Virus record (IMG/VR): IMGVR_UViG_3300045596_000061
Location: 1-64,000 of that record
Direction: 5' to 3' (one strand)
Source of the DNA: a virus
Taxonomy: Duplodnaviria > Caudoviricetes
DNA length: 64,000 bases
Positions 40,144 through 59,962 of this stretch are shown piece after piece. Positions within the stretch are counted from its first letter, which is position 1, and every line of letters begins with the position of its first letter. The translations under genes and the position numbers were made by a program. The notes under the pieces were generated by a model. That model was given only the letters and a program-made list of their open reading frames with translations, was not told where the DNA came from and did no database searches.

Positions 40144-41187
40144 TTAATCAGCCCAATTAATAGTTATATCTGATGAAACAGCCTTAATCTTTTCTATAAG
40201 AGTGTCCATTGCACTTGTGCTAGTAGTTAAGGTATTAGCTTCTGTTACCAAAGTAATAGTCTTTTCAGACTTCTGCACTCCCTCATTACTTCCACTAGTA
40301 TAATAATGGATATCCATTATATCATACTCCTTAGTAGGGTCTACAAGATACTTTGTAGGTATTGTGTGAGGCCATCCTACATTTCTATAGATATCTCCTC
40401 TTTCACCCATGCAGAAGTATTCAAGGTCTGCAATCTTATGACCATTCTTTATAACTTCTGTAGAAGTTACATCTGTAGCCTTACCCCAAATTACCTCATC
40501 ACTATTATAAAGAACACTTGTAGGTACAAGAGTAAAGTAAACAGGAACTTGTTCCTTAATACCTAATACCCATTCCTGTGCTACTTCTGATATAGTGACA
40601 TCAGTTGCTGTAGAAGCATCTATAGTAGCTCCAGTACTATCTATAAGAACATTCTTACTGTTAGCACTATCATATTTAACTCCTGCTACAACCTTACCTG
40701 CAATTTCAAACTGAAGAAGAGTTACAAGTTCTCTACTGAAGTTCTTCCACAAGGAAATTGCAAGCTGCTCATAGAACTGTGCAGCTGTCATGCCTGTATA
40801 AGCATGAACAATACCATACTTGAAGTACTGATCCTCATCAGACATTCCTATATACTGTCTGAAAACTATTCTAAGAATATAATCCTGTCCTGCTATAGGA
40901 AGACCACCATTGACACTAGCATCAAGTCCTACTTTCTGCTTCTTTAGTTTATACTGTTGCTTAGAACCTCTTTTGCAGGTTATTGTAGAGAAATTATCTA
41001 TACTAGGTATATTAATAAGATCACTCCTCATTAAATTTTCTACACCCTTATATTTAAAATATAAGTTTAAATTAGAAGAATCTGCTTTTGCAGCAATAGT
41101 TCCTGCTACATCAGTAGTTTTTACATCATCAGCTACTGCTGTAAATACATAGAGCTGTCTTACTTGATTTGTACTAAATGTTGCCAT
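40144..41187 (-). CDS. auxiliary capsid protein (crAss001 gp36-like)
   Basis: MATFSTNQVRQLYV start; G.KIADLEYFCMGERGD.YR..GWP. Confidence 0.75.
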   Translation of the reverse strand: MATFSTNQVRQLYVFTAVADDVKTTDVAGTIAAKADSSNLNLYFKYKGVENLMRSDLINIPSIDNFSTITCKRGSKQQYKLKKQKVGLDASVNGGLPIAGQDYILRIVFRQYIGMSDEDQYFKYGIVHAYTGMTAAQFYEQLAISLWKNFSRELVTLLQFEIAGKVVAGVKYDSANSKNVLIDSTGATIDASTATDVTISEVAQEWVLGIKEQVPVYFTLVPTSVLYNSDEVIWGKATDVTSTEVIKNGHKIADLEYFCMGERGDIYRNVGWPHTIPTKYLVDPTKEYDIMDIHYYTSGSNEGVQKSEKTITLVTEANTLTTSTSAMDTLIEKIKAVSSDITINWAD

Positions 41188-43876: not shown

Positions 43877-45388
43877 TTATCCCTGCAATATTGCCGGAAT
43901 TATTGACATAGTTCTAGTAGGATCAAGTACACATATGCCCAAAGTAGCCATTCTATGGATAGTAGCACTATCTTCATCATATGACATATAAGGATTACCT
44001 ATCTGACCTGTGAATGGGTTTCTGATACCCCACTGATAGCCTCTATATTCATTCTGACCTTTAATCTTACATTTGAAGATGTTAGGCTGATCCATAGTAC
44101 CCATATACATAATATCATATCTATAAGACATAGCCACACCACCAAATGGTGAGAGTATCTTATTTCTTACAGGATCATCATAGAATGGGTCTACATCAAT
44201 CTTAACTTTAACACCATTAGGTGCAATAAACTCTGTGAACTGGAATCCTGCACTAAGAGCATGATCATTAAGCTTAGATTGTGTTTTCTGGACTATATTC
44301 AGAGAACTATTATCAAGAACAAACTGAGTCCATCCACTCACAGTCTCAAGTACTTTCTTATGGAACTGAATAGCACCTCTTTCACCTGTCTTTACAATGA
44401 ATACTCTATCACCAAAGTCAAGTTTAGCAGCACTGATTTCATATAGTGCATCTTCAAGCAACTTAAGAGAGAAGTTATTATAGTAAATAGTATTAGCTAC
44501 CTCCATTTGCTCAAATAAACCAGCACCAGTCTTAATAGCACTTCCTGATTTACCAAAGTTCATGTATTCACCATTCTGATTTCTGTTACTTCTACCCCAT
44601 GCAAGTGCATTATTCTTGTAGTCTGAGAACTGAGATTCAACCTCAAAATCTACATTGTGCATCCACATCTTAGCAACATCCTTAACATATCTTCCATTAG
44701 TTTCCTTAGTAATAGGGATACCAACTGCAAGTTTCTTATTAAGCATATTTCCTGGAACTTTATGCTGTATTCTAACTACAGACCATTCATTTCTCATAGA
44801 TACAGGAGAAGTAAATCTTACATCACCTACTTTTCTTGAGAGTTCCTTTTCAACAAATGCAGCCTCAATAGAGAATCTTTCACCTGCAAGTAATCTTTCA
44901 GCAGGACATCCAGTAGTATTACCTCCTGCAAGCTCTACCTTATATACTGCATTAGTTCCTTCCATTCTAGGTTCTCCAAGGACTCTAAACTGATAAAGTT
45001 CATTAAGATTACCTACAATATATTCACCATCAGCAAACCAATCCTCACCAAATACCAAATAGAATGGTGCAGTACCTGCACCTACATTTGCACCAGTAGA
45101 AACAACTACTGCGCCATTTTCATCTCTTGCTTCAATAAGAGGAATGTTTCTTCTTGAACTTCCAATAACATCCCAATAATATTCATTATCATCATCAAAT
45201 TCTCTAGTAGGGAACTGATTCAAGAATGTATCAAGAGTCTTTCCTCTATAGTAAGCTAGCAACTGAACCATAAGGTCAGTAGCTTTTTGTGGTGCCTGCT
45301 GAAATATTGAACCTAAGTGGTTCTCTTTAGTCAAGCCTTTCCAATGCTGGAAACCCACCATTTGAAATCTACCTAATTTTCCTGCCAT
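43877..45388 (-). CDS. major capsid protein (HK97 fold, crAss type)
   Basis: 503 aa; GLTKENHLG, G.GLFEQ, TGERG...F, GFQF.E....NG. Confidence 0.9.
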   Translation of the reverse strand: MAGKLGRFQMVGFQHWKGLTKENHLGSIFQQAPQKATDLMVQLLAYYRGKTLDTFLNQFPTREFDDDNEYYWDVIGSSRRNIPLIEARDENGAVVVSTGANVGAGTAPFYLVFGEDWFADGEYIVGNLNELYQFRVLGEPRMEGTNAVYKVELAGGNTTGCPAERLLAGERFSIEAAFVEKELSRKVGDVRFTSPVSMRNEWSVVRIQHKVPGNMLNKKLAVGIPITKETNGRYVKDVAKMWMHNVDFEVESQFSDYKNNALAWGRSNRNQNGEYMNFGKSGSAIKTGAGLFEQMEVANTIYYNNFSLKLLEDALYEISAAKLDFGDRVFIVKTGERGAIQFHKKVLETVSGWTQFVLDNSSLNIVQKTQSKLNDHALSAGFQFTEFIAPNGVKVKIDVDPFYDDPVRNKILSPFGGVAMSYRYDIMYMGTMDQPNIFKCKIKGQNEYRGYQWGIRNPFTGQIGNPYMSYDEDSATIHRMATLGICVLDPTRTMSIIPAILQG

Positions 45389-48378: not shown

Positions 48379-49905
48379 TTATGCCTCTATCCAACTTTGC
48401 TCAATAGCATATAAAGTACTTTTATAAATAGTTATATATTTATATGTTGTTCCATCATCAATGTCATATTCAGAATAGAAAGAAACAATAACTAATTGAT
48501 CCCTCTTAAAATCTGCTATGTAGAAAGAAGTTGCTCCTTGTGTACTATTAGAATTATGACCTAAATTGTAGTATCTACTAACAATAGAACTTTTATCCTT
48601 AGTTACTATATTATTAAACACACAATCATCTTTTAAGAATAAGCTCTTAAGAGAAGCAAAAGTGTACTTAGTTCCTGAGTCAGCATTAGGGTCATCCTCA
48701 GTATTTATAATAGATTCAGATATTGATGTACCACTTGCTGCATCTAATATAAATGATGGCATCTTATACACAAGCTTTATATCAATATTTTTATTACTGT
48801 CAATATTTAACTGTGTACTATCAAGACTTATAGTTTTAATAGGAATATCTGGAATAAAAAGATTTTTTCTACTTACATTTACTGTAATAGAAGAAACAGT
48901 TTCTCCACTTGTAATATTAAAAGTAAGAGTCAAAAGAATATTATTTTTAAAGTCTGCTAAACAAATAGTAGAAATTTTACTAAATTTACTAGTATAGCTA
49001 ATAGTAGTAAAATACTCTATACTAGAGCCAGTAGAAGAGCCAATAATATATTTATAAATGCAATCAGGTATTTCAAATAATTGTAAGAATGTCTCTAATG
49101 TATAATTAGCACCTGTACTTGAATTTGGATCTAAAGCTCCTGTAATAGTTGTAGAATCAAAAGAAGAACCATCTGCTGCATCTACTATAAAAGAAGGCAA
49201 TTTATATACAGACTTAATATTAACATTTTTATTACTATCTATTTCTAATGCTTCATTATTAAAGCTTATAGTTTTAATAGGTGTATCAGTTATAGAAAGG
49301 GACTTCTTTGTTATAGAAACTACAATGGAAGAAACTATTCCTCCAGAACTTGTAATATTAAAAGTAAGAGTTAAGTATGTATTACTTTTAAAATCAGCTA
49401 ATTCAAAAGTAGATACATTACCAGATTGTGTAGTCTTACCTATAGCATTAAAGTAACTTATTTCAGAGTTTGCCGAAGAGTTAAGAACATACTTATATAG
49501 GCAATTAGGAATATCAAATAATTGTAAAAATGTCTTTAGAGTATATTTACTACCAGTATCAGAATTTGGATCATATGCTGCTAAAATATCATCACTGCTA
49601 AAAGATGATCCATCAGTAGCTGTTGCTATAAATGATGGTAAAAAGTATATAGACTTTATATCAACTAAACCAGCAGAAGAAATTGCTTGACTATTTCCAT
49701 CCAAAGCAATAGATTTTATAGTAGAATCTCCTCCTGCTCCTGAATAAATGTCATCTAATATAGAGTATAAAGACTTATCAGCAGTTATACTATGTGCTGA
49801 ATTTACATATCCATATACTGCTTTAGCATGAGTTACCGGATATATCTCTTCCTGACCTAAAGTTCCTATAAGTTCAGAACCTATTATTTTTCTTATTGTA
49901 CCCAT
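48379..49905 (-). CDS. fiber protein with three tandem repeats of about 147 aa
   Basis: IYPVTHAKAV fiber-anchor-like N-terminus; repeats begin at 49719, 49278 and 48840. Confidence 0.7.
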   Translation of the reverse strand: MGTIRKIIGSELIGTLGQEEIYPVTHAKAVYGYVNSAHSITADKSLYSILDDIYSGAGGDSTIKSIALDGNSQAISSAGLVDIKSIYFLPSFIATATDGSSFSSDDILAAYDPNSDTGSKYTLKTFLQLFDIPNCLYKYVLNSSANSEISYFNAIGKTTQSGNVSTFELADFKSNTYLTLTFNITSSGGIVSSIVVSITKKSLSITDTPIKTISFNNEALEIDSNKNVNIKSVYKLPSFIVDAADGSSFDSTTITGALDPNSSTGANYTLETFLQLFEIPDCIYKYIIGSSTGSSIEYFTTISYTSKFSKISTICLADFKNNILLTLTFNITSGETVSSITVNVSRKNLFIPDIPIKTISLDSTQLNIDSNKNIDIKLVYKMPSFILDAASGTSISESIINTEDDPNADSGTKYTFASLKSLFLKDDCVFNNIVTKDKSSIVSRYYNLGHNSNSTQGATSFYIADFKRDQLVIVSFYSEYDIDDGTTYKYITIYKSTLYAIEQSWIEA

Positions 49906-49907
49906 AA

Positions 49908-50738
49908 TTATAATCCTAATTTATTTTCAATAATCTTTAATCTGTCATTCAAACTGTGAACAGCACTGAGAGCTATCATTGATAACTTACCATAGTCTAC
50001 TGCAAGATAACCATTCTTATCTTCTTTTACTATTTCAGGACAAATTTTCTGTATTTCCTGTGCCGAAGTTCCTAGTTGAGTTTCTCCTGGCTTATCCTTA
50101 TACTCAAAGAATTTAATAGGAATTTCAAGAATATCATCTATATCGAATTTAGCATCAGATATAAAGTTCTTAAGTCTTTCATCTGAAGATTGTACAAATG
50201 CAACAGCAGTAATACTTCCTGTGGAAGTATCACTTTTATCTTTTCTTAAGTACATAGTATCCAGTACTGCATCAACTGTCATATCTGGAGGTAAAACAGT
50301 AGACCAATCAAGCTTTAAAGTACCATCAGCTCCTACCATAATACCATTACCATCTCCACTTGCAGTAGCAGCTTTAACTCCACCAAGTGCTGAAGCTGTA
50401 GCTATAGGAAGAGTGTACTTACTTAATCCATTAAGCTTTAATTTATCTGCACCTGACATTAAGCCAGGGTTTCCAGAAGATGCTACTGCTATATTAATTG
50501 TAAAGTTTCCATTTGTAGTCTTTAAAGCAATTATACCACTATCATCTGCAACAGAGGGAATAAAATGTGCTTCTGTAATTGCACCATTATTAACTAAATT
50601 AGTAAGGGTATCACTAATTCCATAGGCAATACCATTTACTAATATTTCCTTAGTATCTGTTACAAAATATACATCATCTCTGTAAGTAGCTGCATCATAC
50701 TTAGCTTTTGCTCCTCTTGCAAATTTTACTTCTGCCAT
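49908..50738 (-). CDS. short fiber/spike protein with C-terminal peptidase S74 intramolecular chaperone
   Basis: GLMS..DK.KL, ATASALGGVK fiber motifs; SDERLK...G.SAQE...PE.V...VDY. Confidence 0.8.
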   Translation of the reverse strand: MAEVKFARGAKAKYDAATYRDDVYFVTDTKEILVNGIAYGISDTLTNLVNNGAITEAHFIPSVADDSGIIALKTTNGNFTINIAVASSGNPGLMSGADKLKLNGLSKYTLPIATASALGGVKAATASGDGNGIMVGADGTLKLDWSTVLPPDMTVDAVLDTMYLRKDKSDTSTGSITAVAFVQSSDERLKNFISDAKFDIDDILEIPIKFFEYKDKPGETQLGTSAQEIQKICPEIVKEDKNGYLAVDYGKLSMIALSAVHSLNDRLKIIENKLGL

Positions 50739-51436: not shown

Positions 51437-51739
51437 TTATAACTTATTATTACTACTGCTTTTATAATTAAAATAGTCTTTACCAAACATCCTTACACTG
51501 ATATAATAAAGTAGTGCAAAGCAATGAAGCCATATTGTTTTAAAAGGACTTACTTCTTCTTGAAATATAATCTTTTCAATATTATGAAATAGTGTATTAT
51601 CAGCTATAAGTCTACTTGCTTCATCTCCACCTATATCATAATCATCATCATGGCAACAACATGCAGCATAGAATTTATCAGCATAAGGTGGCTTAAACCA
51701 CTTTAATATCCCAGTCTGGCATCCACATCCTCTGCTCAT
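51437..51739 (-). CDS. phospholipase A2-like small protein
   Basis: GCG...F.AAC..HD..Y..GG....R..AD..L...Y..VR.FG. Confidence 0.6.
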   Translation of the reverse strand: MSRGCGCQTGILKWFKPPYADKFYAACCCHDDDYDIGGDEASRLIADNTLFHNIEKIIFQEEVSPFKTIWLHCFALLYYISVRMFGKDYFNYKSSSNNKL

Positions 51740-52254
51740 TGTAATAAATTCTCATATACACTCCAGTCAATTGCATTTTTTGTAGTCCAGCCAACAGAAA
51801 GTGTATCCTGTACATATTTTAATCCTTTCAGATAAAAATCTGCCAACGTAGTAATGTCTGTGAATGTATAATAATCATTATTATAATTATCTCCAAATTT
51901 TACAATAAATCCATTTGTAGGCATTCCATTTGCTACATAGGCATCATAAGCAGCTTTATAATTAAACTGATTCTCAGAACTCAGCCAGACATTATGCTCT
52001 TTTTTTGCTGAGTCAATCCACACAAAACCTGATAATATAGCTTTATCTGTTTGCTTATTGTAAAAGTCAGTTATACTTTCTTTTATTTTCTCTATCAATA
52101 ATTCTTTTGAACTACCAATTAAATCAAAAACTTGACATAAACATGTCACTCCATCATCATTATCTTTTTTATCAAAATATACACGCCATTTATCTTTACT
52201 TATCTTAATCATAGGCGTATAATCTGTAATCTTAACTAATGTCTTTACTATCAT
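51736..52254 (-). CDS. DUF4376-like tail-fiber-associated protein
   Basis: I..GFVW...VWLSSENQFNYKAAYD...GW..K..IDW. Confidence 0.65.
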   Translation of the reverse strand: MIVKTLVKITDYTPMIKISKDKWRVYFDKKDNDDGVTCLCQVFDLIGSSKELLIEKIKESITDFYNKQTDKAILSGFVWIDSAKKEHNVWLSSENQFNYKAAYDAYVANGMPTNGFIVKFGDNYNNDYYTFTDITTLADFYLKGLKYVQDTLSVGWTTKNAIDWSVYENLLQ

Positions 52255-53374
52255 ATCTCTTTAATTTAAAATATTTATAATGTCCCTGTATATATAATTT
52301 ATTAAATACCTTATGTGGTAATATCTTTATAAGTTTTGTTCTTATATTATAGGAGCAGAAATGTTGCATTATACCAAAATAAGAATTTAATGTCATCATT
52401 GTACTCTCTGCACTAATCTTTCTTCTATATAGTGAGATAATAAATCTGTATGTATTATTTACTACTCTATTAGCTATATAACTTCTGTCTTTATATACCA
52501 CTGCACCACATGTTTTTATTCCATGGTAGGCTGGTTGAAAATATATTTTATCCATTTTTAGGCAAAGTTCTTTTTTTAGAAGAAGATTTCTTGAATATTC
52601 TACTGCCTTTAGTAATTCAGAATGCTTTCCAATAATATAAAAATCATCCATGTAGATTCCAATATATTTATATCTAGCTTTTAAACAGTTTCCAAAATCT
52701 TTAAGAATTAATAAGGCTGACCATTGTGATACTAAATCTCCTATAGGTAAACCTTTATTTTTTCCATTTGTATATAAAGACTTATAACTAGGAATTAGAT
52801 TCCACATAGATATAGGACTCTTTCTTATTGAATGATTTTCAGGTTCATAATATATAAGTAATTTAATTATATAATTAAGTTCTTCTTTATAATCTCCACT
52901 ATATATATCAATTACTTTTTTCCATTCATTCCAAACTATATCTTTATTAAGTGACATGAAAAAAGATTTAATATCTCCTCCAAAAATCCAACTATCATTA
53001 CCATATTCTTTATAAGAATCTATCATATCCTGCTTTAATACAGAATGATATTGATTTAGTCCCTTACCTTTTCTACAGTTATACATCCTATTAGGCAATA
53101 TACTTTCAATAGTAGGTCTTAAAAACATAACTACTAAAGTATCAAGTATTCTTTTATTTATACTTCCTGCAAAAACTTCTCTTGGTTTAGGCTTAGTAAC
53201 TATGAATGAGTTACTTTCACCTAAATCAACAGTTTGGTTTATAACAGACTCTCGGAGCAAATGAAGGTTATATCTGAAATCACTTTCAAATATAATTTGT
53301 GAACTAGATTTTCTACAATGTTTTCTAAAAATAAAGTAGGCATTGTAATATTGATTTATATCTATATGTTTCAT
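52232..53374 (-). CDS. DGR reverse transcriptase
   Basis: KPKPREVFA, CRKGKG, GDIKSFFMS, GLPIGDLVSQ (SQ typical of DGR RTs), YMDDF, LNSYFG; ATG 53374 gives 380 aa (the called 418-aa ORF reads through TR). Confidence 0.95.
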   Translation of the reverse strand: MKHIDINQYYNAYFIFRKHCRKSSSQIIFESDFRYNLHLLRESVINQTVDLGESNSFIVTKPKPREVFAGSINKRILDTLVVMFLRPTIESILPNRMYNCRKGKGLNQYHSVLKQDMIDSYKEYGNDSWIFGGDIKSFFMSLNKDIVWNEWKKVIDIYSGDYKEELNYIIKLLIYYEPENHSIRKSPISMWNLIPSYKSLYTNGKNKGLPIGDLVSQWSALLILKDFGNCLKARYKYIGIYMDDFYIIGKHSELLKAVEYSRNLLLKKELCLKMDKIYFQPAYHGIKTCGAVVYKDRSYIANRVVNNTYRFIISLYRRKISAESTMMTLNSYFGIMQHFCSYNIRTKLIKILPHKVFNKLYIQGHYKYFKLKRYDSKDIS

Positions 53375-53387
53375 ATATTTTTGTAAA

Positions 53388-53486
53388 GATTCACATACTG
53401 CGAACACAGAGTTGTTGTTGTTCTTGTCATTGTTGTTCACTGTCAAAGAAGAAAAGTTACAATTCCATGTGTTGTTGGCATTATTC
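53388..53486 (-). repeat. DGR template repeat (TR), 99 bp
   Basis: 13 AAY codons and 37 adenines; matches VR except at adenines and one extra VR codon. Confidence 0.95.
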
Positions 53487-53585
53487 AATAACTAATATAT
53501 CTTAACTGTTTATAAAACAGTGTATTGTCCATCTTTATTTAAAATATTTTCTCTATATGAGTTCATAAAAATTTTATGCTTGTCA

Positions 53586-53978
53586 TTAGATTCTATTTAT
53601 TACCTTCATTTTCTCTTCAAGTTTTACTCTAGCACTTATTATCAGTTCTCCAATATGACTTTCAGATAAATCGGAAATTAATCTTTCAGTCTTACTTTTT
53701 TGATTAACTTTATTTACTACAAAAATATATTCTCCCTCACATATATTAAGATTTGCTTCTAATAATGTAAGATTATCATAACATTCTTCTAGCTTTTTAA
53801 GTTTTTCTGTATCATCTTTAGCTCTTTCTTCAAAAATAATACATTTTAAACAATTAGAAGCACAAACTCTAATATCTGCACCATAAGTATATTTAATATC
53901 TTTAGGTAAATGTTTTGTGATAGTATATAATAGTTTTGCAAGTTCTAATAATACACTATATAAATTAAGCTTTCTCAT
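53586..53978 (-). CDS. avd: DGR accessory variability determinant (four-helix bundle)
   Basis: LY....EL.......T.HLPKD.KY.YG..IR; 130 aa from ATG 53978; lies between VR and TR. Confidence 0.85.
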   Translation of the reverse strand: MRKLNLYSVLLELAKLLYTITKHLPKDIKYTYGADIRVCASNCLKCIIFEERAKDDTEKLKKLEECYDNLTLLEANLNICEGEYIFVVNKVNQKSKTERLISDLSESHIGELIISARVKLEEKMKVINRI

Positions 53979-53979
53979 A

Positions 53980-55185
53980 TCAGGATGCACATACTGCGAA
54001 CACAGAGATGAAGTTGAGGCTCTTGACATTGCTGCCCACTGTCAAAGAAGAAAAGTTACAAACCCATGCGCTGATGGCATTAAGCTGAGTAGAAGACCAG
54101 AATGGCGTAGAAGTAGGAAGAGCTGCTAATCCTACAGTAGTTCTACATGTATTAATGTCAGCAATATTAAGTGCAATCTCATAAAGTTCACCTAACGCTG
54201 GTAAGTAACCATTTTTATTAGCTAATTTCCAAGTATAAGAATTACACCATTCAGCTGCATAAGTTAATGCAGTTCCTATGATTGCATCAGTATTAGCTTT
54301 TCCTGCATAATCAAATATTGCAGCATAAGAATCTGTAATAGTAGTACATCCGTCTATTAAGACAGAAGGACCCCATACTTTATTAGTATAATCAGGAGAA
54401 AGAATAATATCTACATTGCTTGTAGTTAGTTTAAATCCTGCTACATTGGCATTATTTGCTGTATCCCATTCTGATGGTGAATAAGTATTTCCATCTTTAT
54501 CTACTATTGCTACTTGTAGTTTTGTTTCTCCATATACAAAATTAGCAGTGAAAGTATCAGCAGATGCTGTTCTTTCTATCAACATAGGAGTACTATAACC
54601 ATTCTTTTTATCACAATATAATACTATAGACTGACCAAAAGGCACATATATAACTATATTAGTTCCTGCCCAAGTATATGTAGTTTTAACATTATTTATA
54701 ACTGCTGTTACTATTTGTCCTGACATATCAGCACTATCATACGCTGAAACATTAATAGTTACCTTTTCAGATTCATATTTTAAAGAAACACTTCTACTAT
54801 TTCCAGAAACTGCTGTAAATGAATCACTTTTAGGAGTGGTATATCCTGTAATAGGCTCTACTTCAACATAATATGATTCATCAGATTTAATATTCTGTGT
54901 TAAAGTAGTACCAGTCCATGTAAGTGTATATAAAATTGTATTATCAGATACTTTTTTAATATATACTTTCTTACCTATAATATTAATTCCTTGATTTGAG
55001 GAAAGTGTAATATTAATTTTTTCCACTGCAATATCACTGCCACTTCCACCTAATGAAGACCACTCACCATTTATAAAAGCCAGAAGGGAATAATTATTTA
55101 AATTACTATTATATTTAAGCCAAAAACTGTTTATATCAGTAGGCTCTGTCTGACTAAAAACTATATTTCTTTTTATTTCTGCCAT
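53980..55185 (-). CDS. DGR target: fiber / receptor-binding protein with two Ig-like repeats and C-terminal C-type-lectin-fold domain
   Basis: IVFSQTEP...W fiber-anchor-like N-terminus; two ...YTW.GT...GY.TP repeats; GYLPALGEL...FWSSTQ...AW...VFAVC end. Confidence 0.85.
   Translation of the reverse strand: MAEIKRNIVFSQTEPTDINSFWLKYNSNLNNYSLLAFINGEWSSLGGSGSDIAVEKINITLSSNQGINIIGKKVYIKKVSDNTILYTLTWTGTTLTQNIKSDESYYVEVEPITGYTTPKSDSFTAVSGNSRSVSLKYESEKVTINVSAYDSADMSGQIVTAVINNVKTTYTWAGTNIVIYVPFGQSIVLYCDKKNGYSTPMLIERTASADTFTANFVYGETKLQVAIVDKDGNTYSPSEWDTANNANVAGFKLTTSNVDIILSPDYTNKVWGPSVLIDGCTTITDSYAAIFDYAGKANTDAIIGTALTYAAEWCNSYTWKLANKNGYLPALGELYEIALNIADINTCRTTVGLAALPTSTPFWSSTQLNAISAWVCNFSSLTVGSNVKSLNFISVFAVCAS
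53984..54085 (-). repeat. DGR variable repeat (VR), 102 bp
   Basis: 3' end of target gene; 16 substitutions versus TR, all at TR adenines, plus one extra codon. Confidence 0.95.
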
Positions 55186-55190
55186 AATAT

Positions 55191-57611
55191 TTAATTACTT
55201 TTAGTTGTTACTTGTTTATTTAAAGCTGCCCTTTTAATAGCAATCTCTTTATCATGTTTCTCTTTGTCCTGTACAAGTTTATCTCTTTCAAGTTTTATTT
55301 TAGTATCAAATTCTCTCATTTGCTCTATAAGTTTATCCTTATTTTCTTGAGTATTATCAGGTTCCTGAATACCATCATTCATATTTGCATAGCCTTCTGC
55401 CTGTATATTAGCTATTAAAACTTTAGTTTCATTATCTCTTATGTTAGCTTCTTCTTTTTGCTTAAGCTCAGATTCCTTTTGTAACATCTGAGATTCAAGG
55501 GCTTGCTGTTGCTGTTTAAGTTGTTCCTGCTGTTGCTGCTGCTGTCTTTCTTGTATCTGCTTTTCATTATTTTCAACCATTCTCTGTTTCTCAATAAGAG
55601 AAGAAGAGTTATAAAGCTGCATAATAGTAGAAAAAGAAAGAGTCTGATTCTGTAAAGCAGCCTGTGCAAGAGTATCAAGTTTCTGTGAAAGAAGCTGTGT
55701 GCTGTTACTATTATCTACTACTAAGCCATAATCACATTCAGCAAACTCATCACCATCTATATTCATGACTTGCATAGACCCATCATTAAGAATATATTGG
55801 AACTTCTTACTTCTTCCTTTAAGTGCTGCCTTTGCAGTTTCTATAAAGCATTCAAGTACTCTTTTCTTTACATCATCATGTATAGTAAATAGCCACTCAG
55901 TTATATATGAGGATTGTAGAGTAGCTCTTTCAACTCCACCAACAGTTTCTCTATTACTTATCTGTCCCTCTCTCTGCTTAGAAATACCTGCAACATCACT
56001 CATCTCCATTTTAATAAATTCAAGAAGGTTCATATATTGCTGTATCTGATTTCCATCAGAAGCTGCTATTACTCCATTAGAAGCATTATTCATAGCTCCT
56101 GCAAGTTTACCTGTAGCTGCTCCTATATTACCTTCATTGAAACTATCCTCAACTGCTATACCCATAGTCTTTGCATAGTATAACCATTTTTCTACATCCC
56201 ATCCTTTAGGATGATTCTTAGCAAAATCATATCTTATAAGAGTGCCCCAATTTCTTGCTATAAGTTTATTAAGCCTGTCATGTATAATATCATAAAGATA
56301 ACTATAAGGTTTCATCATATCAACAAGTGAGAAAGGTCTACTATCATTAAGATTATATATAGAGCCTATAATACCAAAGTGGCATCTTGATGGATTGCTA
56401 AGTCTATTATACTGTACTACTCTAGGTCTCATATTTACATAAATATCAGTACCTATTTTAGTACCTTCCCATGCTTCATTAATATAAAATATCTGCTCTT
56501 CTTCTCCTTCATCTGTTTTAAGTATATAAGTTTCAGGATAAAAATGAAATTCCTCCTCACCTGTTTCTTTATTATAAGACCTTACTTTCTTAATCTTTCT
56601 TCTTGATTTCCAATATACTCTAAGAACTCTAAGATTACCAGCTATATCATAAGGAAGTAATGTATTACCTATTCCTTCAGAAGTCATAAGAGGATCCCAA
56701 AAGAAACCTTCCTGTGAAGTAATCTCATCACCTATCATGTAATTATTTACAAAGCCCATTCTTTCATCTATATTACTCATAGAGTCAGTAGCTGCCTGTC
56801 CTACATGGTCTGGTAATTTATTTATATATTCAAGGTCTTTTGTAGTAAGTAAGTCATAATAAGTATCTATTACCCTACCTGGACTCCAATAATCCTCAAG
56901 GACTATCATATCAGCATCTTCAATTTTATTTGAATAACCTGACTTAAATATTCTAACCTTAAGAGGATTAAGTTTTTCAAGTGTTGGCTCACCTCCTATT
57001 ATACTACATTGATATATTTCCTCTCCTACAGTCATAGCATCCATAAATCCTTGATTAAATATAAGAGGAATATTAAGTTCTTTTACATAATGATTAAGTA
57101 AAAGATTAGATCTGATTTCTCTCATATCCTGCCACTCATAAGTGAAGTAATCACTCATTTTTTCAAGTTCCTGATTAGCATCCTCATCAGACTGACTGTT
57201 ATTTGATACCCATTGCTGTAATCTCTGATAAATCTCTTCTTTCTTATTATTTTCTATATCTGATACTGCATTAGGATTAGTGACTATAACCTTAAAATCA
57301 AATACCCTTTTAGACTCTTCTCCTTTAAGGACATTAAGTTTACTATTCATTATAGGATAGTGCTGTATTCTATCTGGTATAAATCCTGCTCTAATATGTT
57401 CAGGATTTAGTATGAGTTCCATATCATTCATATGAAGTTTACCATTAAGTAAATCATAATTAATCTTCTTATGAATCACACTCTTCCTACATAAAGAATA
57501 ATTAAAGAAAGTTTTAGAGTCAGCCCAATCTAAGTGTGCCTTACGCCATGCTTTAGTTTTCTTATTAAAAGAAAGCTGCTCAGGAGGAAGACTTTGTGAA
57601 CTATATTCCAT
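55191..57611 (-). CDS. portal protein
   Basis: 806 aa directly downstream of TerL; LP.EQL....KT..WR, YP.....LN.L.GEE..R, GIS.QREGQI...ETVGGVER. Confidence 0.9.
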   Translation of the reverse strand: MEYSSQSLPPEQLSFNKKTKAWRKAHLDWADSKTFFNYSLCRKSVIHKKINYDLLNGKLHMNDMELILNPEHIRAGFIPDRIQHYPIMNSKLNVLKGEESKRVFDFKVIVTNPNAVSDIENNKKEEIYQRLQQWVSNNSQSDEDANQELEKMSDYFTYEWQDMREIRSNLLLNHYVKELNIPLIFNQGFMDAMTVGEEIYQCSIIGGEPTLEKLNPLKVRIFKSGYSNKIEDADMIVLEDYWSPGRVIDTYYDLLTTKDLEYINKLPDHVGQAATDSMSNIDERMGFVNNYMIGDEITSQEGFFWDPLMTSEGIGNTLLPYDIAGNLRVLRVYWKSRRKIKKVRSYNKETGEEEFHFYPETYILKTDEGEEEQIFYINEAWEGTKIGTDIYVNMRPRVVQYNRLSNPSRCHFGIIGSIYNLNDSRPFSLVDMMKPYSYLYDIIHDRLNKLIARNWGTLIRYDFAKNHPKGWDVEKWLYYAKTMGIAVEDSFNEGNIGAATGKLAGAMNNASNGVIAASDGNQIQQYMNLLEFIKMEMSDVAGISKQREGQISNRETVGGVERATLQSSYITEWLFTIHDDVKKRVLECFIETAKAALKGRSKKFQYILNDGSMQVMNIDGDEFAECDYGLVVDNSNSTQLLSQKLDTLAQAALQNQTLSFSTIMQLYNSSSLIEKQRMVENNEKQIQERQQQQQQEQLKQQQQALESQMLQKESELKQKEEANIRDNETKVLIANIQAEGYANMNDGIQEPDNTQENKDKLIEQMREFDTKIKLERDKLVQDKEKHDKEIAIKRAALNKQVTTKSN

Positions 57612-57709: not shown

Positions 57710-59962
57710 TTACTGTTTAAAATCACTTATAATATTAAATTTATTATCATAGTTATCAGTAAAGAATTTATCATTACCTGCATAATTAGGAGGTATTTCA
57801 GTTCTCTCCTTAACATCTCCATTGTACATAATAATTTTTTCCTCTCTATATAACATTAATTGTAAAAGAGACATTATTCTATCTACATTAATTTCAGGAT
57901 TATAAAGAATAAGTTCCTTAATTAATGCCCTGTTCTTTAAGAAGTGAAGATTAGGTAATGTGTACTGTACTGATTCACCATTTTCTTCTTTTTCTACAGT
58001 GACTGGTTTAAGTAACCAATCTCTTATAAGAGTCATACCAAAATTCTTTATAGGTGTAGTTGCAGCTACTCCTTTAGAGCTATTACCAAAAGATGTAGTT
58101 TTAATAAGCTCTCTTTGCCTAAGATATTCAGGAGTATCAGCTAATAGATGTAATGAGTTAAATCTGCTGAAATAAGCAAAAGTATTCTTTTTATTATTTT
58201 CATAAAGAAGTCTTCCATTATAGAATAAACATAGCTTTCTTGCTAATTCATTAAGGTCATCAGCAAACATAGGTCTTCCTGTATATTCAGCTACTATTCT
58301 ATCTGTCCATAAATCAAGTACAAATATAGAACCTAAAGACATAGTTTCTGCACTATCATTTTCATAGTTATCAAGTGATAGTATATATCTCTCATAAGGT
58401 ATTTTATTATTAACCTTTACAGGAAGTTCATATATTTCTAATGCTCCTGTTGATTTATTATCCTTAAGAGGAAAATCTCTTATAGGTTTTTCTGCTGTAG
58501 GTTTAAACTCTACAGTATTATCTTTAGCAAAGAATAACTCACCAACATAAGTATCACTATAAAAATTAGGGTTGTTATCTATCTCTGCAAGTCTTGAATT
58601 AAGCTCGGTAACAGGAAATATGTTTTTCGTATATCTCTGTATAGCTTCCTGTGGAGTAATAGGTATTTCAGCTATTCTCTTAGTAATAGTATTAATATCA
58701 GTACTTCCATATTTAACTTTGTATCTATCCTTAAGAATGTATATTAAAGCTCCTATAACATCACTATTACCATCTTTATCATAATATCCTGCCATATTTA
58801 TATATCCAGGAAAGAAGTAAGTAAAGACACTTCTACTCTGTCCTTCCTTATCATATACATTATTAATGCCTTTAATTCTATATCCATTAGGATTATACAT
58901 AAGTTCCTGTAGAGAACTAAAGTCAGAATCCTTATCACCTGCTGTACCATAAGCATATATAAGACCAAAAGTCTTTTCACCATCTTCCACAGAAGGTCTA
59001 AGTACAGAGAAAAGGTCTCTTAGTCTAGGGAAAGTACCTGCTTCTTCAAGTAGAAAAAGAACACCTCTTGAACCTCTAAGTTTAGACTCATCATCTTTTG
59101 ATGTAATTCCGACTACACTATTCTGTGTTCCTCTTCTTGCACCTGTATCTGAGTCAATATAACCCATAGTCCATTGAAGATTCTGCATTGATGATGTAAT
59201 TCTCTTTGAAGGAAATTGAGTATTAATTGCACAGAAATCTATATAATACTGAAACATATCAAGAATCTGATTAGCCCCATGAATATACTTTTTCTCTGAT
59301 GCAGTAGCAACACACTGTACTTTTACATTTACTTCAGCACTTTCTCCTAATATAAATCTTTTAGCAAGCATAGCTGCTGCATAGTAAGACTTACCTTTAC
59401 CTCTACTTGCAAGTTCAACAGCATGTTTACCTTCATTTCTACATTGCTCAAGATAATGTGATTTAAGATAATGACCTTCCCATACTTTAGGAAATCCTAT
59501 AGCTCTGTTACTTCTATTATTACTTCCCTCTTTAATAAGCTGTATAGGGCAATAATTAAGAAAGAAATAAAAATCACCAGTAATCCATTCACCATCTGAT
59601 GGTCTTATATATCCATCATAGCACCTTCTTATTTCTTCTCTTATCCATTTACCAAACTCACTATTAGGATTACTATTAGGCTTAAGTTTAGTATAGCAGC
59701 CATTTTTCTCAAAGTATATAGCAGATGGTCTAAAGTAATCCATATTCTCTAAAATATGAGGCTTTGTTATATCTATTTTAATTCTTCCTAGTTCATCTCT
59801 GTCAAGGTCTTTTGCATATAATCTATGAGGAGATATAAGACTCTTTATGTAAGGAATATTATTAATACACTCAAAAAACTGTTCCTTTTCTTCACTATTA
59901 AGAGTGTTTATAAGTTCTTCAGTAATTGGTGTCTGACAACTATTTACTTTAATTTCATTCAT
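57710..59962 (-). CDS. terL: terminase large subunit
   Basis: Walker A-like ASRGKGKSY, Walker B LFLLEEAG, RNase H-like LSLD...YENN...DR. Confidence 0.92.
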   Translation of the reverse strand: MNEIKVNSCQTPITEELINTLNSEEKEQFFECINNIPYIKSLISPHRLYAKDLDRDELGRIKIDITKPHILENMDYFRPSAIYFEKNGCYTKLKPNSNPNSEFGKWIREEIRRCYDGYIRPSDGEWITGDFYFFLNYCPIQLIKEGSNNRSNRAIGFPKVWEGHYLKSHYLEQCRNEGKHAVELASRGKGKSYYAAAMLAKRFILGESAEVNVKVQCVATASEKKYIHGANQILDMFQYYIDFCAINTQFPSKRITSSMQNLQWTMGYIDSDTGARRGTQNSVVGITSKDDESKLRGSRGVLFLLEEAGTFPRLRDLFSVLRPSVEDGEKTFGLIYAYGTAGDKDSDFSSLQELMYNPNGYRIKGINNVYDKEGQSRSVFTYFFPGYINMAGYYDKDGNSDVIGALIYILKDRYKVKYGSTDINTITKRIAEIPITPQEAIQRYTKNIFPVTELNSRLAEIDNNPNFYSDTYVGELFFAKDNTVEFKPTAEKPIRDFPLKDNKSTGALEIYELPVKVNNKIPYERYILSLDNYENDSAETMSLGSIFVLDLWTDRIVAEYTGRPMFADDLNELARKLCLFYNGRLLYENNKKNTFAYFSRFNSLHLLADTPEYLRQRELIKTTSFGNSSKGVAATTPIKNFGMTLIRDWLLKPVTVEKEENGESVQYTLPNLHFLKNRALIKELILYNPEINVDRIMSLLQLMLYREEKIIMYNGDVKERTEIPPNYAGNDKFFTDNYDNKFNIISDFKQ

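Follow-up and report, generated by a model that had tools for sequence, protein, structure and literature searches.

The diversity-generating retroelement (DGR) of the Bordetella phage BPP-1 is organised as mtd-avd-TR-brt and thus comprises a target gene with a variable repeat (VR), the accessory gene avd, a template repeat (TR) and a reverse transcriptase (RT). Its changes are adenine-specific, the TR is rich in AAY codons, and the VR is located at the C-terminus of a C-type-lectin fold of the Mtd/FGE class at the tail-fibre tip. In crAss-like phages, DGRs have been described for the Alpha genus I crAssphage LMMB (PMC7290462), for Epsilon (PMC11054128) and for Zeta (PMC12386605). In each case the C-terminal lectin of a virion fibre is targeted, and the targets are described as tail-collar, tail fibre or receptor-binding proteins (PMC7290462, PMC11054128, PMC12386605). 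The element of LMMB is without avd and lies at the far end of the structural block. Up to now, the crAss-like DGRs have been read as tools changing tail-fibre specificity. For the Faecalibacterium phages Mushu and Brigit it has been proposed that a DGR acts on a protein displayed on the capsid, perhaps to adhere to mucus, the targets being designated Hoc-like capsid decoration proteins (PMC5883640, PMC11792537); this assignment is based on the Ig-repeat architecture only. A further DGR is present in the Bacteroides uniformis siphophages F1, F2 and F4 (PMC8143477).

The head fibres of crassviruses are represented by gp21 of PhiCrAss001, the trimeric head fibre (HFT; PDB 7QOF; Bayfield et al. 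2023, PMC10172136). This protein of 97 aa is encoded by the gene following the portal gene, carries a phi29 gp8.5-like distal domain and has no DGR. By cryo-EM its residues 1-38 occupy the planar hexon pocket (PMC10172136; PDB 7QOF). The literature searched contains no report of Steigviridae with a DGR, nor of a crassvirus head fibre as the target of one. The locus presented here is likely to combine both, namely a canonical Avd-dependent DGR in a Steigviridae phage with a trimeric head fibre of the gp21 type as its target.

Organisation of the cassette

The window, i.e. the whole stretch of 64,000 nt that was analysed, belongs to a genome of 96,564 nt. The phage, described as gut crAss-like, was assigned to the Steigviridae (beta) crassviruses, with a portal protein 70 % and a major capsid protein (MCP) 80 % identical to those of PhiCrAss001; the portal identity refers to gp20 and rises to 78 % in comparison to bajarodcaudo virus 1. 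The genes of the large terminase (57710-59962; phrog_6681 terminase large subunit, E 4e-103) and the portal protein (55191-57611; phrog_6547, E 6e-133) are located on the minus strand, and so is the complete cassette, which has the order target(VR)-avd-TR-RT. The target gene (53980-55185), defined by its ORF, homologues and VR variation, codes for 401 aa. Its final 34 codons are the VR (53984-54085, 102 nt), and the ORF stops 3 nt beyond it. The ATG of avd (53586-53978, 130 aa) follows 1 nt past the target stop codon (TGAtATG), so that this gene sits between VR and the non-coding TR (53388-53486, 99 nt). Another 13 nt past the TR the ATG of the RT gene (52232-53374, 380 aa) is found. All three ORFs are open and intact, as an earlier note on this DNA had claimed for RT and Avd. 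The complete BPP-1-type DGR in a crAss-like phage which that note had proposed was recovered with all its parts, and the cassette is thus supported as complete, canonical and Avd-dependent.

The likeness to BPP-1 includes the gene order, the adenine-specific changes, the AAY-rich TR, the VR at the C-terminus of a C-type-lectin fold, and the RT, whose best solved relative is the BPP-1 bRT. However, the target is predicted to be anchored like a capsid head fibre and not as a tail-fibre tip, its lectin belongs to the Lcl_C/DUF1566 class, a GC-rich IMH or hairpin was not found, the gap between TR and RT measures 13 nt, and the VR exceeds the TR by one codon. In comparison to the DGRs of Alpha genus I, Epsilon and Zeta, the present element resides in Steigviridae, possesses avd and has its target in the head-fibre slot.

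The target protein and its place on the virion

The target protein can be divided into three parts, all encoded on the minus strand. The N-terminal ~50 residues (55036-55185; BLASTP, leave-out HMM) represent a putative hexon-pocket anchor of the gp21 type. Two tandem beta-sandwich domains resembling pilin or adhesin stalks follow at about residues 53-220 (54526-55029; AF2, Foldseek), and residues 221-401 (53983-54525; AF2, Foldseek, BFVD, Pfam) form a C-terminal domain with a C-type-lectin fold of the Lcl_C/DUF1566 type. In the AF2 model of the whole target, calculated as a monomer from a 6-sequence alignment, residues 1-52 are of low confidence, and the beta-sandwich domains, which Foldseek matched to Ig-like stalks of pilins and adhesins, reach a pLDDT of about 85-95. 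The lectin domain was refolded from a 49-sequence alignment (pLDDT 96, pTM 0.91). Its Foldseek matches are 4eps (E 1.6e-6, TMq 0.73), the C-terminal domain of Lcl (8q4e) and then C-type lectin-like domains; structural matches in BFVD are DUF1566 phage proteins (TM up to 0.89). Pfam Lcl_C was detected in 12 of 49 homologues. The target itself has no Pfam match, and a phmmer search of the full protein against PDB sequences gave none either. The VR, situated at the target ORF's 3' end, lies within this fold, which agrees with the earlier assumption of a C-type-lectin display domain. A related lectin domain with about 29-31 % identity is the DGR target of the siphophages F1, F2 and F4; the relationship is distant, and virus group and target context are different.

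The N-terminus of the target aligns with residues 5-40 of PhiCrAss001 gp21 (BLASTP, E 2e-5), the hexon-pocket part, and with cr116_1 gp010 (E 4e-7). An HMM of six post-portal genes, with the target left out, matched just this ORF (E 2.8e-8) among the 657 ORFs of the genome, the next best one giving an E-value of 0.98. This anchor homology spans only about 40 residues, and its database-wide signal is weak: the sole tblastn match of the N-terminal 55 aa in the phage collection was in cr116_1 with E 5, and a word-based search with residues 1-56 found only the target's own cluster. The match in cr116_1 is the post-portal gene of that phage. In addition, the target gene lies directly downstream of the portal gene, which is the slot of gp21, and the same post-portal slot exists in six Steigviridae genomes (PhiCrAss001, DAC15, cr116_1, cr85_1, cr128_1 and bajarodcaudo virus 1). 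The proteins forming the hexon pocket are also kept, with whole-protein identities of 80 % to gp32 for the MCP (43880-45388, minus strand; tblastn) and 44 % to gp36 for the auxiliary protein (AUX; 40174-41178, minus strand; E 1e-76).

The phi29 gp8.5-like distal domain (PF11133) of gp21, which is also present in DAC15 gp103 and the bajarodcaudo head fibre, is absent from the target. It is missing in cr116_1, cr85_1 and cr128_1 too, and therefore the distal part appears to be variable within the head-fibre family. In contrast to the short gp21, the target carries two beta-sandwich domains and a lectin diversified by a DGR. The element had been regarded as inserted directly after the portal gene; the target is instead most likely the resident head-fibre gene with this different distal part and with avd-TR-RT behind it. 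It was considered whether a 276-aa ORF containing a PF11133 segment (49908-50738) is a displaced C-terminus left from a former head fibre; this was rejected, since its sole similarity to gp21 is a common short fibre motif (YxLPxATxSxxGGVK).

Because of the gp21 anchor and the slot directly after the portal gene, the target is, judged from sequence, most likely a head fibre of the gp21 type, and the DGR would diversify a lectin displayed on the capsid. The reading of the mutated fibre tip of the earlier note as a tail-fibre or receptor-binding tip was not sustained by these data. It seems rather unlikely that such a protein is the target and that the DGR drives tropism switching as with Mtd of BPP-1, even though tail fibre is the usual designation of phage DGR lectin targets (PMC7290462, PMC12386605) and the distal module is not head-specific. 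The latter follows from its occurrence in P0002, where it is 77 % identical and joined to a tail-fibre-like N-terminus, and in cr116_1 gp012 (31 % identity), which is located two genes past the head-fibre gene of cr116_1, in a downstream block of fibre genes. However, the anchor has its matches among gp21-type head fibres alone, and no other ORF of the genome carries it. The gene sits in the head-fibre slot, and the conserved tail-fibre N-terminus is situated on a separate ORF (48379-49905). In cr128_1 and bajarodcaudo virus 1, the genes after the head fibre share this tail-fibre N-terminus. Compared with Mushu and Brigit, the anchor of the proposed head fibre is homologous to a segment which cryo-EM puts on the capsid, and the variable domain has a lectin fold.

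Repeats, enzymes and probable recent activity

A recount confirmed the positions of TR and VR, their minus-strand orientation and the 16 adenine-only substitutions reported before. With CTC taken as the extra codon of the VR, these are 7 A>G, 7 A>T and 2 A>C, all of them at TR adenines and none at other bases. The number lies between 16 and 18 according to the placement of the extra NNC codon within the (AAC)4 run, and the restriction to adenines holds for every placement. The TR contains 37 A in 99 nt, and the chance of 16 out of 16 random substitutions hitting A is 1.1e-8. In the VR frame 13 AAY codons are found in the TR, AAY being the classic stop-free codon of DGRs. A search with the adenine-masked TR pattern revealed no second VR in the whole genome, and the adenine-masked TR/VR DNA pattern had no match in the viral contigs or metagenome contigs searched.

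Activity of the DGR was probably recent, as had been claimed earlier. A near-identical relative from another assembly (P0001/P0164), with P0001 being 95 % identical, differs at 11 of the 34 VR residues (32 %), compared with 8/367 in the rest of the target (Fisher p 1.5e-8) and 3/380 in the RT (99.2 % identity), and it is this concentration of differences in the VR next to a near-identical RT which argues for recent activity. One of the VR differences, T382V, needs a non-adenine change from the TR of the present phage. In the searches for related loci, nothing with target or RT was found in viral contigs; a profile scan of metagenome contigs gave a single locus (L008) encoding a 1223-aa fibre with a lectin end of 33 % identity, whose direct repeats include no TR/VR pair.

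We regard it as improbable that the cassette is a frozen relic in which the genes look intact, retrohoming has ceased and the VR differences are old. Such a state would fit the length of the VR, since the VR in its present form, with 102 versus 99 nt, does not simply reproduce the TR as it now is; as a side possibility, slippage within the (AAC)n run may make the VR variable in length as well. It would also fit the flanking regions. In their conserved 3' block the repeats agree over 19 nt, differ at one position (A/C) and match at 3 more nt, and no GC-rich IMH of the BPP-1 kind was found at the 3' ends. A BPP-1-type hairpin after the VR was not found, only AT palindromes being located within 100 nt downstream. 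Furthermore, the short distance between TR and RT start means that a spacer RNA, if any, must overlap the RT ORF. Candidate RNA elements on the minus strand are a perfect 7-bp hairpin at 53505-53521, 18 nt upstream of the TR, and, for a spacer RNA, a 12-bp hairpin at 53268-53295, which lies within the RT ORF about 95 nt past the TR. The predicted RNA structure flanking the TR does not stand out (z -0.84), and scans for promoters and terminators stayed at background level. Against a relic stand the zero non-adenine mismatches over 99 nt, the three intact ORFs with catalytic motifs and the divergence of the VR between phages with almost the same RT.

The RT contains GDLVSQ at residue 212 and YMDD at residue 241, corresponding to the [I/L/V]GxxxSQ motif and the YxDD site of DGR-clade RTs, and was classed as a DGR enzyme by these motifs and its best matches. 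It matches RVT_1 (9e-9) and phrog_1423 (8e-42), and its best match in the PDB is the BPP-1 bRT (8ub7, E 7.6e-8), in which PIGSLTSQ is aligned to PIGDLVSQ. Among the matches listed, the closest phage RTs are those of Bacteroides siphophages, with 34-36 % identity (95 % coverage) to the DGR phages Bacteroides F2/F4/Bacuni_F1, and no Crassvirales record occurs among the 30 records listed out of 33 that matched. Avd (pI 8.2) matches phrog_3206 'Avd protein of DGR' (1e-9) as well as NF033474 DivGenRetAVD (8e-6) and Pfam bAvd PF22296 (3.5e-4), the latter two with scores under the curated cut-offs. An ordinary duplication next to an unrelated retron, group II intron or defence RT, to which a weak generic TIGR04416 match (32.6 bits, cut-off 300) and PADLOC generic RT and DRT models (<=57 bits) could point, can be dismissed as contradicted by the adenine-only mismatches (P 1e-8), the GxxxSQ motif and the best PDB match to bRT, the Avd gene between VR and TR and the AAY-rich TR.

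Proposed mechanism and meaning for the crassviruses

For a head fibre with a diversified lectin we infer retrohoming, capsid attachment, the trimer state and the ligand. If the process follows BPP-1, an RT-Avd complex would reverse-transcribe an RNA which covers the TR together with its flanks, with misincorporation opposite template adenines during cDNA synthesis. The cDNA would replace the VR, i.e. the last 34 codons of the target, and recoding could affect as many as about 18 positions in the C-terminal strands of the lectin domain, corresponding to about 8e18 possible peptides. The first ~50 residues of the target may plug into the hexon pocket of MCP and auxiliary protein, the two beta-sandwich domains would keep the lectin clear of the capsid shell, and the head of the virion would show many copies of a hypervariable lectin.

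A likely use of such a lectin would be a reversible first contact with variable glycans and not the irreversible step at the tail receptor; candidates are glycans of the host capsule or surface, or else mucins of the gut. Tentatively, the DGR may hypermutate a many-copy capsid lectin so that the virion adheres to non-receptor glycans which vary, for instance gut mucins or phase-variable Bacteroides capsules. The switching of host receptors, assumed in the earlier note, is a weaker inference for a head fibre.

To our knowledge, no ligand has been identified for crassvirus head fibres. Programmed hypermutation of a head fibre would imply that its ligand is variable and relevant for fitness, and the VR variants would offer a handle on this ligand, for example with glycan arrays, host capsule types or mucins. 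The variable lectin is here joined to a predicted head-fibre anchor whose attachment site is known from cryo-EM. The finding extends DGRs to the Steigviridae, the family with most of the cultured crassviruses, in which genetic and structural work is feasible. If the proposed reading is true, the target would be a natural, structurally anchored hypervariable capsid binder of the kind invoked by the idea of phage adherence to mucus.

Architecture of the retroelement

The diversity-generating retroelement (DGR) is genuine and canonical. On the minus strand, the genes of the large terminase (57710–59962) and the portal (55191–57611) are followed by the target gene (53980–55185, 401 aa), which ends 3 nt past the variable repeat (VR), the gene of the accessory protein Avd (53586–53978), whose ATG lies 1 nt past the target stop codon, a gap of 99 nt, the template repeat (TR) and, after 13 nt, the reverse transcriptase (RT) gene (52232–53374). 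The RT matches RVT_1 (9e-9) and phrog_1423 (8e-42) and carries YMDD at residue 241 and GDLVSQ at residue 212, the GxxxSQ motif being characteristic of DGR RTs (PMC12386605). Among all PDB sequences, the RT of the BPP-1 DGR (8ub7, 7.6e-8) matches it best, with PIGDLVSQ opposite PIGSLTSQ; models of group II intron, retron and defence RTs gave weak, generic matches. Among the matches listed, the closest phage RTs belong to the published DGR phages Bacteroides F2, F4 and Bacuni_F1 (34–36 % identity, 95 % of the length), and none of the 30 listed out of 33 RT matches stems from Crassvirales. Avd matches phrog_3206 (1e-9), NF033474 'DGR protein Avd' (8e-6) and Pfam bAvd (3.5e-4); since the last two scores are under the curated cut-offs, the protein is divergent. 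The earlier note had recognised a complete DGR, and the order of target with VR, Avd, TR and RT, the RT motifs and the 8ub7 match bear this out.

The BPP-1 DGR possesses a GC-rich IMH and a post-VR hairpin, whereas both were looked for at this locus and not found. With just 13 nt between TR and RT start, a spacer-like RNA element, if there is one, must extend into the RT ORF. Candidate RNA elements are two hairpins, one of 12 bp at 53268–53295 and one of 7 bp shortly upstream of the TR (53505–53521); the overall RNA fold did not outscore shuffled sequence (z −0.84). Directly after the DGR, a 172-aa ORF (51736–52254, minus strand; phrog_19239 1e-31, weak DUF4376 and DUF6353) overlaps the RT stop by 23 nt.

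The repeat pair and probable recent activity

Inspection of the minus strand over 51800–55600, repeat search, local alignment and codon-wise comparison place the TR at 53388–53486 (99 nt) and the VR at 53984–54085 (102 nt), both on the minus strand and both where they had been proposed before. The VR deviates from the TR at 16 positions (7 A>G, 7 A>T, 2 A>C), each of them a TR adenine, and is longer by one NNC codon, exactly as the earlier note had counted. For 16 random substitutions all to fall on A, P is 1.1e-8 (37 A in the 99 nt of the TR). If the extra codon is placed elsewhere in the (AAC)4 run, 17–18 substitutions result, still adenine-only. The TR contains 13 AAY codons; the theoretical VR repertoire is about 8e18 peptides, and a stop is possible at a single AAG codon only. 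A search with the adenine-masked TR pattern found no second VR in the 96,564-nt genome.

The exact target sequence occurs on four contigs. The second member of the target cluster, P0001, comes from another assembly, where it is found together with the RT P0164. The RTs differ at 3 of 380 residues and the targets outside the VR at 8 of 367, versus 11 of 34 within the VR (Fisher p 1.5e-8). Of these 11 differences, ten fall on template codons AAY or GAC or on the extra codon; the remaining one, T382V, requires a change at a position other than an adenine of this TR and may stem from a TR difference in the relative. The concentration of divergence in the VR, the lack of TR/VR mismatches outside adenines and the intactness of the DGR genes argue that homing has taken place after the two lineages separated. 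The DGR, as had been suggested, was thus probably active recently, a statement about the time since that split and not about the sampled population.

Three of the eight differences outside the VR (N268D, V270T, S274Y) cluster at 54364–54384, residues 268–274. This segment may be a loop adjoining the VR face and changing without help of the DGR; it is variable among more distant homologues too.

The extra codon lies in a run of five NNC codons in the VR (54008–54022) versus four AAC codons in the TR (53409–53420). The VR of P0001, whose target is 95 % identical, has the same length although three of the five NNC codons differ, so the length mismatch is common to two lineages with different VR content. 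The mismatch stems either from loss of one AAC codon by the TR since homing last took place or from slippage of the RT along the AAC run.

Fold and virion location of the target

Scanning 1.84 billion representatives with HMMER yielded 714 relatives of residues 220–401 of the target. The C-terminal domain, folded with 48 short relatives, was modelled with a pLDDT of 96 and a pTM of 0.91, and the VR spans its last three strands. In a Foldseek search against the PDB, a Bacteroides ovatus fimbrial protein ranked first with its C-terminal domain (4eps, E 1.6e-6, TMq 0.73), followed by the Legionella Lcl C-terminal domain (8q4e) and many C-type lectin-like domains. The best BFVD matches are phage DUF1566 proteins (TM ≤0.89), and Pfam Lcl_C was found in 12 of 49 aligned proteins. 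The predicted structure thereby upholds the C-type-lectin-fold display domain claimed earlier. A whole-protein model built from six sequences contains two further confident beta-sandwich domains (residues ~53–220) with likeness to pilin and adhesin stalk domains.

The 96.5-kb IMG/VR virus record from which the window stems is estimated to be 95 % complete. Its portal is 70 % identical to PhiCrAss001 gp20, 78 % to that of bajarodcaudo virus 1 and 68–73 % to those of other Steigviridae/Asinivirinae; the major capsid protein (MCP) shares 80 % with gp32 and the auxiliary capsid protein 44 % with gp36. By these sequence comparisons the phage is assigned to the Steigviridae (beta) crAss-like phages. 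In PhiCrAss001, DAC15, cr116_1, cr85_1, cr128_1 and bajarodcaudo virus 1 the head fibre gene directly follows the portal gene, and three of the six genomes carry this annotation; the DGR target occupies the same slot. The PhiCrAss001 gene product, gp21, was identified by cryo-EM as the trimeric head fibre, with residues 1–38 inserted at the three-fold axes into a planar hexon pocket made of MCP and auxiliary protein (PMC10172136; PDB 7QOF). Residues 6–48 of the target align with gp21 residues 5–40 (E 2e-5), and its N-terminus aligns with cr116_1 gp010 (E 4e-7). Furthermore, an HMM was built from the N-terminal 50 residues encoded by the post-portal genes of the six relatives, with the protein under study left out, and was searched against all 657 six-frame ORFs of at least 40 aa in the whole genome. 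The target was the sole match (E 2.8e-8; next best 0.98), so the head-fibre anchor is present in the target, and no other of these ORFs matches it. The homologous segment is short and reached an E-value of only 5 in a database-wide tblastn search; the single match in 2.3 Gb was another post-portal gene. The distal part of gp21 is phi29 gp8.5-like, as in DAC15 and bajarodcaudo virus 1, whereas the target carries stalk and lectin instead; since cr85_1, cr128_1 and cr116_1 have different distal parts as well, this swap fits the modularity of the family.

The earlier note's fibre tip, if read as that of a tail fibre, is at odds with the gp21-type anchor and the head-fibre slot, and a tail-fibre N-terminus resides on another ORF. 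The first 31 residues of that ORF (48379–49905, minus strand, 508 aa) share 52 % identity with the N-termini of the post-head-fibre genes of cr128_1 and bajarodcaudo virus 1 and are probably, on this similarity, the conserved segment for tail-fibre attachment; the distal part differs. Homologues of the PhiCrAss001 dimeric head fibre gp29 and tail fibres gp22–gp24 were not found by tblastn in the whole genome, in which MCP, auxiliary protein and portal are well conserved. Five more ORFs lie between the RT and ORF 48379–49905. A 276-aa fibre-like protein (49908–50738, minus strand) combines a segment of the phi29 head-fibre type (PF11133, 3e-6) with the common 'YTLPxATxSxLGGVK' motif and bears an S74 intramolecular chaperone domain at its C-terminus; the gp21 anchor HMM did not match it. 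We consider it likely that the target is a capsid head fibre and not the tip of a tail fibre.

The distal module itself, judged by its homologues, is not head-specific. P0002, a 656-aa protein from a 56-kb Logan contig, carries the two-domain stalk and lectin module (77 % identity) on an N-terminus of ~300 aa with tail-fibre repeat motifs, and would thus exemplify movement of the module between different virion anchors. Its VR-equivalent end is one residue shorter. Another version (31 % identity), cr116_1 gp012, lies two genes past that phage's own head-fibre gene.

DGRs of crAss-like phages and the role of the target

The occurrence of DGRs in some crAss-like phages, mentioned in the earlier note, is documented for three groups: Alpha genus I with a tail-collar fibre as target and no avd (PMC7290462), Epsilon with a receptor-binding protein (PMC11054128) and Zeta with tail fibres, avd being present in Lera and ct1yV3 only (PMC12386605). 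The literature searched, which covered few subscription journals, yielded no account of a DGR in Steigviridae or of one acting on a crassvirus head fibre; large DGR surveys may include this IMG/VR record. A capsid-displayed DGR target is not a new idea, since Hoc-like capsid decoration proteins were proposed, from domain architecture, as targets in the Faecalibacterium phages Mushu and Brigit (PMC5883640, PMC11792537). What is new here is that the DGR most likely diversifies the head fibre of a crassvirus from the Steigviridae. Such a diversified fibre may serve first-contact binding to capsule or surface glycans of the host, or to gut mucins.
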